From contig CAWFDF010000005.1 of the NCBI GenBank assembly GCA_963814585.1, forward strand, positions 1 through 55,808: a stretch of 55,808 nucleotides of DNA, in the 5' to 3' direction. The notes under the pieces are model-generated. The model searched no databases and was not told where the DNA came from. It saw nothing but the letters and a program-made list of their open reading frames with translations. The stretch's first letter is position 1. Every line of letters starts with the position of its first letter. Source of the stretch: an uncultured delta proteobacterium. GTDB lineage: Bacteria > Myxococcota > Myxococcia > Myxococcales > Anaeromyxobacteraceae. A program made the position numbers and the translations under genes. Below are positions 9,307 to 20,054 of the stretch, one piece after another.

Positions 9307-9521
9307 GGCGGACTCCCCGGGGTGGTGCGAGCCCGAGGATGCTAACGGCCCCTTCCGGCTCGGTCAAACTGGTGACGACCGCCTGGCGCACGCCCCGAAT
9401 CGCCACGTGCCGCGGCCCGCTTGACATGTGCGGAACGAGCTACAAGTTGTTGCCTTGGGGGGCCGCCACCGGTATCCCTAGCCCGAGCAGTCCCAGGTGG
9501 GAAAGGCCGAAGGAGATCCAG

Positions 9522-12002
<2,481 letters not shown>

Positions 12003-12113
12003 CCTGAGGCCTGCGCTCGCGCGAGGCCAGCCCGCCACCGGGTGGCCCCACCCGGGCGCTCGTGTCATAGTCCGGCCTCGACGATCTGCCATGCCTGTCG
12101 TCATCCCGGCACC

Positions 12114-12129
12114 TGGCATGGGTCGTGCC
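12114..12129 (+). promoter_or_regulatory. Putative sigma54 -24/-12 promoter of the kinase operon
   Basis: TGGCATGGGTCGTGCC with GG-N10-GC spacing, about 20 nt before the GTG start. Confidence 0.55.
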
Positions 12130-12148
12130 ACCAAGTGGGGAACCGGCC

Positions 12149-13930
12149 GTGATCAGGACGTTGGGGCGTTACCAGCTGCTCGAGCAGGTCGGGAGCGGAG
12201 GCATGGCGGTCGTCTACCGGGGCCGCGACACCGCCCTCGAGCGCGAGGTGGCGGTCAAGCTCCTCCACCCTCACCTCGCGCAGGCCCCCGAGAGCCGCGC
12301 CCGCTTCTCGCGCGAGGCGCGCGCCGTCGCCCGCCTGGCCCACCCCGGCATCGTCGAGATCTACGACTACTCGGGAGACGGCGTCCTCGAGGCCTACCTG
12401 GTGACCGAGTTCATCCGGGGCAAGACCCTGCGGGTCTTCGCCGAGGGGATCGGCTTCACCCATCCGGAGGTCGGCCTGCTCATCGGCCGGGCGCTGGCCG
12501 ATGCGCTGGCCCACGCCCACGCCGCCGGCGTCATCCACCGCGATCTCAAGCCGGAGAACGTGATGGTGCAGGAGGGCGCTCGACCCGCGGTGAAGCTCAC
12601 CGACTTCGGAATCGCCCGCATCCTCGCTTCCGACGAGCGGATGACCATGACCGGCGCGCTGGTCGGATCGCCCAACCACATGGCCCCGGAGATCGTCGAG
12701 GGGAAGGAGGCCGACGAGCGCAGCGACCTGTTCTCGCTCGGCACCATCCTCTACTGGCTGGCCACCGGCCGCCTGCCCTTCGCCGCCGCGAACCCGACCG
12801 CCACGCTCCGCCGCGCCATCACCGGCGAGTTCGAGGACCCTCGCACCCTCGCCGAGCAGGTTTCCGGCCGGCTGGCCGCCCTGCTCACCCGGTGCCTCGC
12901 CCCCGACCCGGCCTCCCGGCCGGCCAGCGCCACCGAGGTCCGTGCCGCCCTCGACGAGATCCTCGCCGAGGTCGGGCTGGTGCGGCCCGACGAGGAGGTG
13001 CTCCGCCTTCTCGCCGACCCGGCCGCCTTCCTGGCCGAGTACCCGTCGCGCGCCGTGGCCGCCCTCGTCCAGCACGGCGAGGCGGCGCTTCGGGATGGTC
13101 ATGCCGCCCTGGCGCTGGGCTTCTTCGACCGGGTCCTGGCGCTCGATCCTGCCAACACGCTGGTGGCCGAGCGACTGCGGACGCTCTCCCGGCGGCGCCG
13201 CTGGCGCCGTGCCGCCTGGAGCGTGGGCGGCCTGGTGGCCGCCGTGGCGCTGGTGGCCTCGGGCTGGACCTGGTGGCCTCAGCGCCCACCTTCCCCCCCG
13301 GCCTCGGGTGGCGCCGATGCCGCCGCCACCGGCACCGAGACCGGCGGGGCGCTGGCGCCGGAGCGGCCAGCCCCTCCAGCCGCCGCGGACGCGCCGCCAC
13401 GGGTGCCGTCCCACGGGGTGCTGGAAGGCGGCGCGGCCCGGCCAGGATCGCAGGAGCCGGCGGTGGAGTGGCTGGTCCGGGTCCGCCCGTACGCCCAGCG
13501 CGCGCTCCTCGACGGGGTCGAGGTGCCAAGCGGTGACCAGGTGGTCCGGTTCGTCCTGTCGCCCGGGCGATCCCACACCATCCAGATCGAGCACGCCTGC
13601 TGCGTTCCCTTCCAGCGGGAGATCACCGCCAGGGAGGCCGCGGCGCAGGGAGAGCTGCGCGTGCCGCTCCAGCCGAGGCCAGCGCGGCTTCGCGTCGAGG
13701 GCGAGCCGACCACGCGGATCCTGCTCGACGGCCAGCTCGTCGGCACTGCCGGTGACTCCCAGCGCGCGCCGCTCCCGGTCGGCATCCCCTCCGGAGGGGA
13801 GACGCCCTACGAGGCCAGCGGCCGCCTCGTCCTCGAGCCGCCGACCGGTCCGGCGCGGACCGTCGTGGTGAAGCTCCGCGCCGGCGGGGAGCTGGTGGTC
13901 GCCGCGCCCACCGCCGAGGGGGCGCCGTGA
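12149..13930 (+). CDS. Membrane Hanks-type Ser/Thr protein kinase with extracytoplasmic PEGA-like domains
   Basis: GSGGMAVVY, VAVK, HRDLKPEN, DFG and APE motifs; TM helix; Pro-rich linker. Confidence 0.93.
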   Translation: MIRTLGRYQLLEQVGSGGMAVVYRGRDTALEREVAVKLLHPHLAQAPESRARFSREARAVARLAHPGIVEIYDYSGDGVLEAYLVTEFIRGKTLRVFAEGIGFTHPEVGLLIGRALADALAHAHAAGVIHRDLKPENVMVQEGARPAVKLTDFGIARILASDERMTMTGALVGSPNHMAPEIVEGKEADERSDLFSLGTILYWLATGRLPFAAANPTATLRRAITGEFEDPRTLAEQVSGRLAALLTRCLAPDPASRPASATEVRAALDEILAEVGLVRPDEEVLRLLADPAAFLAEYPSRAVAALVQHGEAALRDGHAALALGFFDRVLALDPANTLVAERLRTLSRRRRWRRAAWSVGGLVAAVALVASGWTWWPQRPPSPPASGGADAAATGTETGGALAPERPAPPAAADAPPRVPSHGVLEGGAARPGSQEPAVEWLVRVRPYAQRALLDGVEVPSGDQVVRFVLSPGRSHTIQIEHACCVPFQREITAREAAAQGELRVPLQPRPARLRVEGEPTTRILLDGQLVGTAGDSQRAPLPVGIPSGGETPYEASGRLVLEPPTGPARTVVVKLRAGGELVVAAPTAEGAP

Positions 13931-14784
13931 ACGCCTTCGTCCCCCTGCTGCTGGCCCTCGCCCTCGCCGCCCCGGCCGAGCTGAAGCGGGCCAAGGATCG
14001 CTTCGCCTTCGGCGCCTGGGCCGACTGCGCCGGGACCTTGATTCCCTTCCTGGCCCGCCACCCGGTCCTCACCGACGAGGAGGCGGTCGAGGCCTGGCGC
14101 CTTCTCGGCATCTCCGAGTACCACCTCGGCGATCAGGCGGCGGCCCGCACCGCCTTCGTCAACCTGCTCTCCTTCGATCCCGACTACGGCCTCGACCCGT
14201 TCCTGGTGCCGCCCCCCATCGTCGACTTCTTCGACAAGGTGAAGCGCGAGCACGAGCCGGATCTGGCGCCGCTCCGGGAGCGGAAGCGGGCCCTGCGGGA
14301 GCAGCAGCAGCTGGCCGAGGAGGCCAAGCGGCGGCTGCTCGCCGAGGAGCAGGCGCGCAGCGGACCGCCGACCAAGGTCATCAGGGTCCAGGAGCGGGTC
14401 TACCTGCTCAACTGGATCCCCTTCGGAGCCGGCCAGTTCCAGAACGGGGAGAAGAGCAAGGGGACGGCCCTCGCCATCAGCGAGCTGACGCTGGCGCTGA
14501 TCAACGTCGCCGCGCTCGTGGCCCACGGCCAGATCGCCGACGACCGCTCGCGGATGTGCACGTCCAGCCAGCCCAACTGCACCTCTCCCCCGTACACCGA
14601 CTCCGACCGGACGCTGCTGGGGCGGCTCGACACGGTGAAGTACGTCTCGGCCGGCCTGTTCTGGGGACTCTACGGCTACGGGGTCTGGGACGCCCACCGC
14701 CACTTCGTTCCCATCGTCGAGACCGAGGTGGGGCCGGGCGGCCTGCCGACCGGCGTGAAGGTCGGCCTGCAGGGGAGGTTCTAG
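13927..14784 (+). CDS. Exported TPR-like protein with C-terminal membrane region
   Basis: Signal peptide; helical repeat [32 protein letters not shown] motif; GTGA overlap with the kinase. Confidence 0.75.
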
Positions 14785-14785
14785 G

Positions 14786-16609
14786 GTGGCCACCTTGACC
14801 GTGCGGGGACCGAACGGGAGCGAGCGGCGGGTCACCCTGTCGCGCCGGATCACCAGCCTCGGACAGGCGCCCGAGAACGACATCGCCGTCTCCGACCCCG
14901 CCCTGCCGGCCACCGCGCTCCATCTCCACTTCGACGGACGCGATCACGACGTGGCGGTCCACGAGGGCGTGGCCATGACCGTCAATGGCCGCAAGCGAAC
15001 CACCTGGCGGCTCGCCCCCGGGGACCGGATCCGCATCGGCGCCACCGAGCTGCTCTTCGACCCCGGCCCCGCCACCCCGGCCCCGCCTCTTCCGGCTCCC
15101 ACCGGGCAGCGGCTGGTCGCCCTCGACACGCTGGTCCGCTTCTCCGAGCGCCTGCTCGGCGCCACCGACTTCAACCGGCTCCTCGACGAGCTCCTCGACG
15201 CCCTCGTCGAGGTCACCCAGGCCGACAAGGGCTTCCTCATCCTGATCGAGGAGGGCGCCATGACGGTCCGGGCCGCCCGCAACGTGGCCCGGGAGACCAT
15301 CGAGAGCGCGGTCAACCGCGTCTCCGACTCGATCGTCCGCCGGGTGGTCGAGACCGGGAAGCCGCTGGTGGTGGCCGACGCCCTCCATGACGCCGAGTGG
15401 TCGGGCTCCTCCTCGGTGGTGAACCTGAGGCTCTGCTCGGTGATGTGCGCCCCCCTGAAGCAGAAAGGGGAGGTCTTCGGCGTCATCTACCTGGGCAACG
15501 ACAGCGTGGTGTCCCTGTTCGACGAGCGGGCGCTCGAGCCCCTCACCGTGTTCGCCGCCCAGGCGTCGCTGCTGGTGCAGAACGCCCTGCTGCTCGACTC
15601 GCTCCGGCGCGAGAACGTGGCGCTGCGCGAGGCCGTCACCACCAAGCGCTATGGCGAGCTGGTCGGCTCCGGCGCCTCGATGCGCGAGGTCTTCCGGCGC
15701 ATCGAGAAGGTGGCCTCGACCGACATCTCGGTCCTCATCACCGGCGAGACCGGGACCGGGAAGGAGGTGGTGGCCCGGGAGCTCCACCGCCGATCGACGC
15801 GAGCCAGCGGGCCCTTCGTGGCCGTCAACTGCGGCGCCATCCCGGAGACGCTGCTGGAGTCGGAGCTCTTCGGCCATGCCAAGGGGGCCTTCACCGGCGC
15901 CGTGGCGGCGCGCATCGGGCGCTTCCAGGCGGCCGCGGGTGGCACCCTCTTCCTCGACGAGATCGCCGAGATGGCCCCTTCGCTCCAGGTCAAGCTGCTC
16001 CGGGCGCTGCAGGAGCGGATCGTGCTGCGGGTCGGCGAGAGCCGCCCCGAGCCGGTCGACATCCGGGTGGTGGCGGCCACCAACAAGGTCCTGGAGGAGG
16101 AGATCCGGCGCGGCGCCTTCCGGGAGGATCTCTACTACCGGCTCAACGTGGTGGCGATCCACCTGCCGCCGCTGCGCGAGCGTGGCGACGACGTGGTGAC
16201 GCTGGCGCGCTACTTCCTGCAGCAGTACGCCCGCGAGTTCGGCACGCGGGTGCGTGGCTTCACGCCCGGGGCGCTGGCGGCGATGCGTCGCCACGCCTGG
16301 CCCGGCAACGTCCGGGAGCTGGAGAACCGGGTGAAGACGGCGGTCGTGCTGGCCGACAAGGCGCTGGTCTCGGCGGAGGTCCTCGGCCTCGACGCGGAGG
16401 TGGTGGAGCCGGTCGCCCCGCTCACGCAGGCCACGCGGGAGTTCCAGAAGCGCTACGTGAACGAGGTGCTGGAGCGGAACCAGGGGAACAGGACCAAGAC
16501 CGCCAAGGACCTCGGCGTCGACCCACGCACCATCTTCCGCCACCTGGAGCGGATGGAGGCGGAGCGGCGCGGCGAGGTCTCCCCGCCGGACGCCGAGGAG
16601 ACGCCATGA
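14786..16609 (+). CDS. FHA-GAF sigma54 enhancer-binding protein with Fis-type HTH
   Basis: N-terminal FHA-like fold, [30 protein letters not shown]-terminal HTH. Confidence 0.93.
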
Positions 16610-17226
16610 GCCACCCCCTTCCAGGGCGCGGGGCCCTGGCGCTCCTGCTCGGCGCCGCCCTGGCCGGCTGCCCGATCCCCCAGGCCCTGCCCGAGTACCC
16701 GACCAGCGGCACCATCACCCCGCCGAGGATCCAGTCGGACCGGGTGACGCCCAGTGACACGCTCATCCTGGTCGACGCCGGCTGCGCGACCCCGCCCACG
16801 CCCGTCTTCACGCTCAGCGCCGGGCTGATCGACGAGAACACCTACGAGAAGGTCGAGGCCCGCTGGTTCGTCGACTACGACCCGGAGCGGGCCGCCAACG
16901 TCACCCCGGTGCTGCCGCCCCAGATCATCGATGGCCCCGCCGACGGCGTCACCATCGAGCGCCGCCTCGACGACTACCTCTTCCAGCCCTACGGGTTCGA
17001 CCCAGCCGGCGGCGAGCAGGCCTTCCGGGACGCTGGCGGGATCCACATCGTCGAGCTGGTGGTGTCCAACAACTTCGCGCCCGAGGCGGCGCCACCGGCC
17101 TCCAACCCGCGCCCCTGGCGCACGCCGCTCAAGACGGCAACCCAGACCTTCGAGACCCAGGTCTACCGCTGGGTCTTCCACTACGTGCCGACGGGCACGA
17201 CCGGCGCCCGCTGCCAGTACCCCTGA
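16606..17226 (+). CDS. Hypothetical lipoprotein
   Basis: ATGA overlap with the bEBP stop; lipobox LAGC. Confidence 0.75.
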
Positions 17227-17254
17227 GGGTCCGCCGGCGGCCCCGGCCACGGCG

Positions 17255-17791
17255 CTAGGGCTGCCCGCTGGCTCGCCGCCGGGCCAGCTCGATCGCCCGG
17301 GCGGCGGCGTTCGCCAGCTCGGCCTGCTCGACCGCGAAGCGGTTCACCTGCGCCCGGTAGGCCCTGTGGAGCGCCAGCACCGCATCCCGAGCCTGGGCCA
17401 GCTCCCGACGGCCGGCGAAGTCGCCGGGGGCGCCCTCGGAGCCGTCCAGCCGGCACCGCTCACCCAGGTCCTCGAGCCGCTGCTCCCATTCGACCGACCA
17501 GGCATTGAAGCGCGCCACCGCGTCGGTGGCGCCAATCTCGGCGCCGAGCCTCCAGGCCCGCTGGTTCAGGTCGCGGTGGAGCGCGTCGATCTCCTCGGCG
17601 CAGACGCGCGACACGGCGCGGGTCGGAAGTGCTCCCTTCGCAGGAGGACGGCTCCCCGAGATGTTCCTGCTGATGCTGGCCACCATGGCGCCTACGGCCA
17701 GCGCAATGGCCAGGAGGTAGGCGATCCACATGAAGGCGCGATATGGGCGGAGGCTCGGATCCCGCTGGAGCACCTGGCGAATCTGCCTCAA
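17255..17791 (-). CDS. Hypothetical single-TM helical protein
   Basis: TM segment followed by a helical domain with two Cys; start uncertain (TTG 17791 or ATG 17731). Confidence 0.65.
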   Translation of the reverse strand: MRQIRQVLQRDPSLRPYRAFMWIAYLLAIALAVGAMVASISRNISGSRPPAKGALPTRAVSRVCAEEIDALHRDLNQRAWRLGAEIGATDAVARFNAWSVEWEQRLEDLGERCRLDGSEGAPGDFAGRRELAQARDAVLALHRAYRAQVNRFAVEQAELANAAARAIELARRRASGQP

Positions 17792-17928
17792 GGCCGAGCG
17801 GGCGTCTACCCACTCGGCCCATTTCGATTCCGCAATGGGCGTTCATGACTGAAATGCACCTTCGCAGCGAGCCTGTCCGGGAGCCGTGCAAGCCCCCGTG
17901 ATCACGGGACACGTCGGCCAGGCGTGGA

Positions 17929-17944
17929 TGGCAAGCCACTTGCT
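17929..17944 (+). promoter_or_regulatory. Sigma54 promoter with no downstream + strand CDS
   Basis: TGGCAAGCCACTTGCT, near-consensus TGGCAC-N5-TTGCW; upstream palindrome CCCGTGATCACGGG (17895-17908) and CATTTC..GAAATG inverted pair (17820-17856). Confidence 0.75.
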
Positions 17945-17954
17945 ACCCATCACG

Positions 17955-18027
17955 TGCTGAAGGCTCTCTGGATCCGGTGGCGCTCCCCCCCCCTTGCGCT
18001 GCTGGAACCGAGGGCCTTCTTTCTCTT
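17955..18027 (+). ncRNA. Candidate Pxr-like small RNA (single long hairpin, C9 loop, U-tract)
   Basis: ~24-bp stem 17959-17983/17996-18019 with several G-U pairs; loop UCCCCCCCCCUU; followed by UUUCUCUU; begins ~12 nt after the sigma54 -12 element. Confidence 0.65.
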
Positions 18028-18044
18028 CCTGGTGCTCGAGCCGC

Positions 18045-19871
<1,827 letters not shown>

Positions 19872-20054
19872 GTCGTCTTCTAGCACGCGACCCCCACGCC
19901 GCCGCGGGCGCCCCCCACCTCACGTCCAAACGTATGGACTTCCAGCGCCCTGTCAGGGCCCTCGCTACCCCCGCCAATCACTCCTGCCACCTCGCCCGCG
20001 CGGGTGGGCCGGAGCGCTCGACCCAAAGACCGGGGAAAGGCCGGAGGCGTGGTC

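Follow-up and report, generated by a model that had tools for sequence, protein, structure and literature searches.

The presence of a near-consensus sigma54 promoter that points at no protein gene raises the question of what this promoter transcribes. It lies between gene X and mutL in the window, the whole 55,808-nucleotide stretch of DNA from an uncultured member of the Anaeromyxobacteraceae analysed here, and the original prediction, made from the letters alone, held that it drives a minimal single-hairpin relative or analogue of Pxr. Pxr, a brake on fruiting-body development that is processed into long and short forms, is the best-known sRNA for which a recent myxobacterial origin, linked to the gating of multicellular development, has been proposed (PMC5684412); its emergence has been placed in or near the Myxococcaceae (PMC11928866). 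In the accessible portions of the Pxr literature, to which all citations here refer, neither its direct targets nor the binding site of PxrR is settled. On the evidence set out below, the site is very probably the gene for a regulatory RNA of ~70 bases, a one-hairpin relative of Pxr.

The features of the cassette are collected in Table 1. As predicted, no co-oriented protein gene lies 3' of the sigma54 box, mutL being convergent and gene X divergent. A stem of about 24 bp had been expected about 12 nt behind the box; the hairpin is there, but the actual gap is 14 nt and the stem has 23 pairs. Four of these are G-U pairs, in keeping with the several foreseen, and the poly-C loop and the U-rich tail were recovered as well. 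The claim that the G-U pairs work on the + strand RNA only was also borne out: the + strand gave z = -5.4 and -5.7, with 0 of 200 shuffles equally stable, versus z = +0.3 and -0.6 on the - strand, where no U run stands behind the stem. Judging from the position of the box, transcription would start near 17955, and the RNA would consist of a single hairpin and its U tail, with the mutL stop 25 nt from the hairpin. The strict sigma54 box occurs 52 times in the 4.3-Mb genome, and the paired palindromes (at most one mismatch each) occur once, 107 nt before the window box, a combination that goes beyond chance. A terminator scan of the window, limited to loops of up to 8 nt, made no call, and a Rfam scan of 17000-19000 returned nothing above threshold and no Pxr at E<=10. 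Three RNA runs of the same study yielded 0 contigs on 17200-18400, and no RNA holder was found for 16600-19900, which carries no weight either way. There is little doubt, in our judgement, that a real transcribed RNA is made from this site.

Table 1. Features of the cassette and of its flanks, with positions in the window.
Feature	Position	Strand	Remarks
Gene X	17255-17791	-	178 aa, no Pfam family; divergent neighbour, flanks cassette
Enhancer palindrome 1, putative PxrR site	17822-17835	strandless	TT[T/G]CA-N4-TG[A/C]AA; 107 nt upstream of the -24 box
Enhancer palindrome 2	17841-17854	strandless	19 nt downstream of palindrome 1
Perfect 14-bp palindrome	17895-17908		enhancer-promoter interval; partly kept, only within the genus
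sigma54 -24/-12 promoter	17929-17944	+	TGGC-N7-TTGCT; sequence motif only
Hairpin, RNA body and probably its own terminator stem	17959-18019	+	23 pairs, arranged 10+2+11
Loop U-C9-UU, putative pairing seed	17984-17995	+	12 nt
U-rich tail, putative 3' end	18020-18027	+	6 U in 8 nt
mutL	18045-19886	-	convergent neighbour; Pfam MutL_C, DNA_mis_repair

On the other side of gene X, the window carries at 9339-17226 (+) an operon-like array of lon, a Ser/Thr kinase, a TPR protein, an FHA-GAF sigma54 activator and a putative lipoprotein. In those family loci that were checked, the last two retain their place next to gene X and mutL.

Conservation of the interval between gene X and mutL was examined in 24 family loci retrieved via gene X, 23 of which extended to mutL. 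The strict box and hairpin are present in 14 of the 23 and a diverged form in one (L013); in the remaining eight the gap measures 28-109 nt and the entire cassette is absent. Alignment of the region downstream of mutL, which had been suggested as a check, therefore showed the box, the hairpin base and the C run conserved in 15 of 23 related loci. The elements TGGC and TTGCT are invariant in 14 of 14 aligned mutL-side copies, as are the hairpin base and the C run, and the latter is invariant in all three alignments (A1, A2 and A3). In 15 copies the outer 10 bp of the mutL-side stem are 98% paired versus 29-61% when slid, and four of these pairs show changes on both sides; the compensatory changes in A2 split two groups and hence may represent few events. 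The mutL-side copies of other genera share with the window copy the GAAG...CUUC-U base, the length and the promoter spacing. Among copies of the genus, the spacers drift, but enhancer halves, box, stem and C run stay conserved. Most close relatives have a tail of seven to eight U, and that of the window copy is weaker than in its closest relatives. Outside the window's family, none of 19 loci examined had a mutL-side copy.

These observations bear on a simpler account, in which the hairpin does no more than terminate or insulate the transcript of the convergent mutL, or gives rise to RNA antisense to the mutL 3' end. The hairpin stands close enough, 25 nt past the mutL stop, and the imperfect U tail of the window copy would permit read-through into mutL. 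However, the - strand, which carries the mutL transcript, folds no better than shuffles and has no U run behind the stem, so that it does not qualify as an intrinsic terminator; in 8 of 23 relatives no hairpin stands at the end of mutL; the same type of cassette is found at the pxrR locus and in places that have no mutL; and promoter, enhancer and hairpin come and go together. We consider this account very improbable.

The gap between gene X and mutL holds other conserved elements. In genera g4, g7, g8 and g9, an ORF of ~50 aa with two Cys runs divergently from the RNA cassette (L013, L018, L019, L021, L053, L055, L060, L176, L177, L178, L179, L182, L183, L185 and L202) and persists even where the RNA and enhancer have been lost. 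A sigma54-like box ~12 nt before its GTG suggests that this ORF is probably leaderless. In genera g6-g10 (e.g., L018, L021, L023, L013 and L194), the C-loop hairpin of the mutL-side copies is followed by a second long hairpin, which in G018 has its own C10 loop; as the first hairpin of genus g8 has no U tail, the RNA there probably comprises two hairpins. In L022 (G002:C5:742740-743263) a frameshift splits gene X.

The enhancer connects the window RNA with Pxr. Both palindromes are present in 15 of 15 mutL-side copies at about -108 and -89 from the box, the first between -105 and -111. The motif written from these copies matches 16 of 16 Rfam-positive Pxr loci, at -110/-91 in 13 and -100/-81 in three, and also three of four sub-threshold Pxr loci. 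The reverse test used matrices trained only on Pxr promoters and on palindromes detected de novo upstream of Pxr; the RNA itself did not enter into them. This model ranked 17929 of the window first in 4.3 Mb (38.9 bits); the next row (22.8 bits) was the same enhancer with a poor box, and the next independent locus was C4:429063, part of a second copy of the cassette beside pxrR. In the accessible text of PMC5684412, pxr is said to have an 'upstream enhancer binding region', for which no motif is given. From the sequence comparison we infer that the palindrome pair is the binding site for PxrR.

The second copy lies in the window's own genome at G000:C4:428906-429162 (L081:4407-4663, +), with the RNA part at C4:429089-429162. 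It is preceded by the gene for a PAS-GAF histidine kinase (pxrK) and by pxrR, and consists of enhancer, sigma54 box and C8-loop hairpin, behind which stand a small receiver gene and the convergent nuoN. All pxr genes described in the available part of PMC5568312 are located between nla19/pxrR and an NADH dehydrogenase gene. The sister copy occupies this position instead of the window copy, which is found between gene X and mutL, and on gene order it is the positional orthologue of Pxr. The original prediction, which had neither the enhancer nor the second copy, assigned the window RNA to a different locus, 3' of mutL; this description falls short, as that RNA is the paralogue of the same-genome copy at Pxr's position.

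The regulator tells a similar story. A search of the genome with PxrR from a Pxr locus found one clear orthologue (58.5% versus 46.9% for the next protein). Searched back, its best match was the gene just before Pxr in three of five genomes of f6, the family that we take to be the Myxococcaceae since it holds Pxr; the other two have no PxrR orthologue, and their Pxr-like remnants have no enhancer. A tree built with FastTree covered 41 activator cores, of which 33 came from RNA loci and eight were other activators of this genome, used as outgroup. The PxrR proteins form one clade with a support of 0.999 and a shared helix, TTLWRK; in this clade f6 is nested beside f5, with f1, f3 and f21 outside these two. 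The FHA-GAF sigma54 activator of the window (14786-16609) was set aside as the driver, because its helix is unlike that of PxrR, it falls outside the PxrR clade, and it is retained where the cassette has been lost. Four loci in small genomes of Pxr's family (L049, L261, L262 and L263) carry Pxr-like remnants without the enhancer, and G046 and G055 have no PxrR orthologue, so Pxr may be rewired or decaying in such genomes.

At the 30 pxrR loci of the window's family, the cassette stands directly behind the gene in 24, 1.7 kb away in one, and is absent from five. In many pxrR-side relatives the sequence of the hairpin tip is nearly the same as at the tip of Pxr stem-loop 1 from early-branching f6 genomes. 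In an unfitted alignment of pxrR-side RNAs, 10 of 20 pairs change on both sides, and pairing is 97% versus 35-53% when slid. A few bases behind the pxrR-side RNA lies the stand-alone receiver-domain gene (L081:4666-5052, +), as in most relatives (L084-L110); it is missing jointly with that RNA in G005 and G009. Read-through from the promoter of the RNA may transcribe it, in an arrangement like that of pxrA behind pxr. Tandem copies, each with its own sigma54 box, follow pxrR in L258 (five; G168) and L134 (three; G045).

Does the RNA itself share its origin with Pxr stem-loop 1? Covariance models without promoters were built from 15 mutL-side RNAs (R1), from 20 pxrR-side RNAs (R2), and from 53 rows, one of them probably junk, with no Pxr in training (R3); the E-values of all three are rough. 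R1 matches 23 of 23 complete pxrR-side hairpins (E 1e-10 to 7e-3); its matches in this genome are two, the copy it was trained on and the pxrR-side one (E 8.7e-4). Against Pxr stem-loop 1 it gave no significant match (best E 0.11). R2 matches nine of nine Pxr stem-loop 1 sequences (E 9e-8 to 0.019) and nine mutL-side copies of other genera (E 7e-8 to 5e-4), and misses four of six mutL-side copies of g1, the genus of the window, and five of five of genus g8. The window copy scores 17.3 bits with R2 (E 0.06), second to an unrelated match of 17.8 bits in the window. R3 matches 36 of 43 f6 genomes, at Pxr's coordinates wherever comparable; in its fitted alignment, which leans towards the model, 19 of 20 pairs have two-sided changes. 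Profiles of hairpin 1, tests of low power, do not rank the window copy. A descent of the window stem from the second hairpin of other genera, to which it bears a likeness by eye, was not supported (6.2 versus 4.3 bits), in a low-power test in which >27,000 genome positions score as well.

Owing to these weak direct scores, the window copy is tied to Pxr by way of its position, its enhancer, its promoter spacing and the other genera's mutL-side copies. It shares position, enhancer, spacing and hairpin base with the other mutL-side copies; these match the pxrR-side copies, and the latter match Pxr, so that the window copy stands in this chain as a diverged member. A PxrR-controlled RNA could instead have arisen separately at the mutL locus and come to resemble stem-loop 1 by convergence, as the weak scores of the window copy would allow (R2 17.3 bits, E 0.06) and as a C run in a GC-rich hairpin, being low in information, would make easy. 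Such an origin is distinctly unlikely, as the copies of other genera in the same position match the pxrR-side model with E down to 7e-8 and have the same base, length and promoter spacing as the window copy, and as the mutL-side and pxrR-side copies show reciprocal loss. Common descent with Pxr stem-loop 1 is, on the sequence comparisons, highly likely. The choice between relative and analogue that the original prediction had left open tips towards the relative, on account of the Pxr-type enhancer palindromes, the sister copy at Pxr's syntenic position and the RNA-only models that reach stem-loop 1.

The gain and loss of the two copies was followed in 71 family genomes, of which eight have no PxrR match, ten have a missing or cut locus, and 53 are assessable. 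Both copies are present in 21 of these 53, the mutL-side copy only in 18 and the pxrR-side copy only in 14, and no genome lacks both (0 versus 4.8 expected); the Fisher p of 0.002 for this deficit is overstated, because kin are not independent. Presence was assigned by eye and R3 in G115 and G102 (mutL side) and in G137 (pxrR side, where the contig end cuts), the degenerate mutL-side copy of G145 was counted as absent, and one spurious row of G024 was dropped. In four of the eight genomes with no PxrR match (G007, G021, G085 and G128; 96-99% complete), pxrKR is cleanly deleted, and the gene before pxrK, which reads as selB from its translation, abuts nuoN; all four also have no mutL-side cassette, and three belong to one genus. 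G127 and G138 have a mutL-side cassette and no PxrR match; both are incomplete at the pxrR locus, which is apparently unassembled. G119 and G129 are uninformative.

These patterns can be read in another way, namely that the window copy is what remains of a gene duplication, now in decay and without function. The copy has been lost in many lineages, 14 of 53 genomes keep the pxrR-side copy alone, a degenerate copy is visible in G145, and the U tail in the window is weaker than in the closest relatives. Against this reading, which we find hardly credible, stand the 18 of 53 genomes that keep the mutL-side copy alone, and the conservation within the genus of enhancer halves, box, stem and C run amid drifting spacers.

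With the Rfam model of Pxr (RF01812), 16 of 101 genomes of the order score above the cut-off, and every one of them is in family f6. Running it had been proposed as a check of the window RNA, and that check came out negative, the gathering score of 80 bits being reached neither in the window, nor in this genome (no match at E<=1), nor in 10 related loci. R2 matches 80 of 141 genomes of the order in eight of nine families: f1 30/38, f2 0/1, f3 3/9, f4 10/13, f5 4/4, f6 10/39, f7 1/1, f8 20/34 and f9 1/1. Inspection of 33 R2 matches showed a sigma54 box at -26 to -30 in 31 and at least two palindromes in 25. Weak R3 matches in G085 and G128 and second matches in G061 and G020, without promoter and enhancer, were rejected. 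Outside the order, R3 matched nine of 86 genomes: one match is a full pxrK-pxrR cassette (G183), five are C-loop hairpins without palindromes, and three are false, with no C loop. The cassette in G183 (L250, family f21), with pxrK, pxrR, enhancer, sigma54 box and hairpin, lies in an AT-rich stretch; its PxrR is 69% identical and sits at the base of the PxrR clade. It may push the origin outside the order, unless transfer or contamination is responsible. In family f12 (L249, L251 and L256), two tandem C-loop hairpins, each with a U tail, occur without palindromes beside a sigma54 activator that is not PxrR.

An exact pattern searched in 185,579 genomes gave 90 matches in 87 stretches, 64 of which have box, palindrome and stable fold; none of the 20 records titled as other phyla or classes has these, and seven stretches carry no titles. 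Five cultured Anaeromyxobacter records carry the full pattern, among them A. oryzae, A. soli, A. terrae and A. oryzisoli. Since such hairpins occur in these records, we take f1, the window's family, to be the Anaeromyxobacteraceae. Anaeromyxobacter belongs to the old Cystobacterineae and is not known to fruit. By themselves, the copies in f1 are compatible with Pxr having arisen at the base of the Cystobacterineae; they do bear on the origin of Pxr within the Myxococcaceae proposed in PMC11928866. In the part of the Pxr literature covered, neither Pxr-like RNAs of Anaeromyxobacter nor the palindrome are mentioned.

A mechanism may be proposed from these parts. The PAS-GAF kinase PxrK would phosphorylate PxrR, which would bind the palindromes and open the sigma54 promoter. 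An RNA of ~70 nt (about 17955-18027) would then be made, with its stem and U run acting as terminator; the length of the stem would protect the RNA and expose the C loop. This loop would pair, Hfq-free, with G runs at or near ribosome-binding sites and so lower translation, and the two copies would back each other up. Synthesis of Pxr in M. xanthus requires PxrR (PMC10217877), and a C-to-A change in the loop of stem-loop 1 abolishes Pxr function without affecting accumulation (PMC5684412). TRIC-seq found Pxr contacts near the SD of several mRNAs (bioRxiv 10.1101/2025.09.11.675593), and 6C RNA needs no chaperone for the pairing of its C loops with mRNAs (PMC6486639). As there is no gene behind the window copy, it is not a leader, and an action in trans is favoured. 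We regard it as likely that the window encodes a PxrR/sigma54-driven, self-terminating paralogue of an old one-hairpin Pxr whose C loop pairs with G-rich mRNA. It counts against this explanation that Pxr accumulation requires stem-loop 3 (PMC5684412), and the window RNA has none.

Candidate targets were sought in a rough gene set of 3544 calls. In this set, 52 genes have a run of at least six G in the last 25 nt before the start. Such runs are about twice as common just upstream of starts as further upstream (47 versus 18-30 per bin), an excess that SD bias explains. At G7-ATG sites of three relatives (the first 30 of 90, 37 and 87 matches), nine usable orthologues were found here, one with a run of at least six G, and no shared target emerged. 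As no conserved target was found, a role as a protein decoy stays in play, in which the RNA, driven by PxrR and sigma54 as before, would titrate a poly-C-binding protein (Rho, KH or cold-shock protein) through its C loop rather than pair with mRNA. We rate this as unlikely, given that Pxr is in contact with sites near the SD of several mRNAs and that 6C RNA uses its C loops for direct pairing, in the two reports just cited, and given that the target search covered only the first 30 matches in each of three genomes. Action by mRNA pairing, argued largely by analogy, appears quite likely.

The window RNA shares with Pxr (RF01812; Myxococcus xanthus and kin, where PxrK/PxrR are SpdS/SpdR) a sigma54 promoter and paired upstream palindromes, and it has a C run in the loop as well, U-C9-UU against C7 in Pxr stem-loop 1. 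However, Pxr has three hairpins in ~108 nt and stands beside pxrR, whereas the window copy has one hairpin in ~70 nt with a diverged stem, stands alone beside mutL far from pxrR, and contains neither stem-loop 2 nor stem-loop 3 with its conserved 8-bp core. It does have what defines the one-hairpin family, the enhancer pair and box followed 12-14 nt behind by GAAG...C-loop...CUUC-U. Since it fails the RF01812 score and is without the three hairpins and the stem-loop 3 core, we class it as a Pxr variant and not as a member of RF01812. The tandem pxr paralogues of Cystobacter (PMC5568312), which have two long stem-loops, are likewise duplicated, with their own sigma54 promoters and a long first stem, but they keep stem-loop 3 and are in tandem at the pxrR locus, in contrast to the dispersed, single-hairpin window copy. 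The closest functional model is 6C RNA of Actinobacteria (PMC6486639), with C-rich loops, Hfq-free mRNA pairing and a GC-rich host; it is an analogue from another phylum with another architecture and no shared promoter or regulator, and the window has no Rfam match to it. The ar14/cuckoo RNAs of Alphaproteobacteria (RF02344) also have hairpins with pyrimidine-rich loops, but several of them, and with loops CCUCCUCCC rather than pure C runs; the RF02344 model scores 14.5 bits in the window and 27.9 bits in a relative, against a gathering score of 58.8.

The window RNA thus represents a variant of the known Pxr system and no new class. The family points to a greater age and a wider distribution of Pxr and its switch than the three-hairpin form described to date would indicate. 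We lean towards a history in which a one-hairpin C-loop RNA, wired to PxrK/PxrR by way of the conserved palindromes, predates the diversification of the Myxococcales and had a basic role, Pxr arose by the addition of hairpins, with the two-hairpin forms as visible intermediates, and the window gene is a dispersed backup. If this is true, the palindromes offer a candidate PxrR binding motif, and the window RNA is a minimal Pxr supplied by nature, in which the C loop can be studied apart from stem-loops 2 and 3. Targets could be sought by comparison across the dozens of divergent copies and the natural losses, and the cultured Anaeromyxobacter hosts would allow one to ask what the circuit did before, or apart from, fruiting bodies. 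At the pxrR locus of family f3, L248, L260 and L235 carry two-hairpin forms whose second hairpin has a C loop; its stems resemble by eye those of Pxr stem-loop 3, and these RNAs are possible intermediates towards Pxr.
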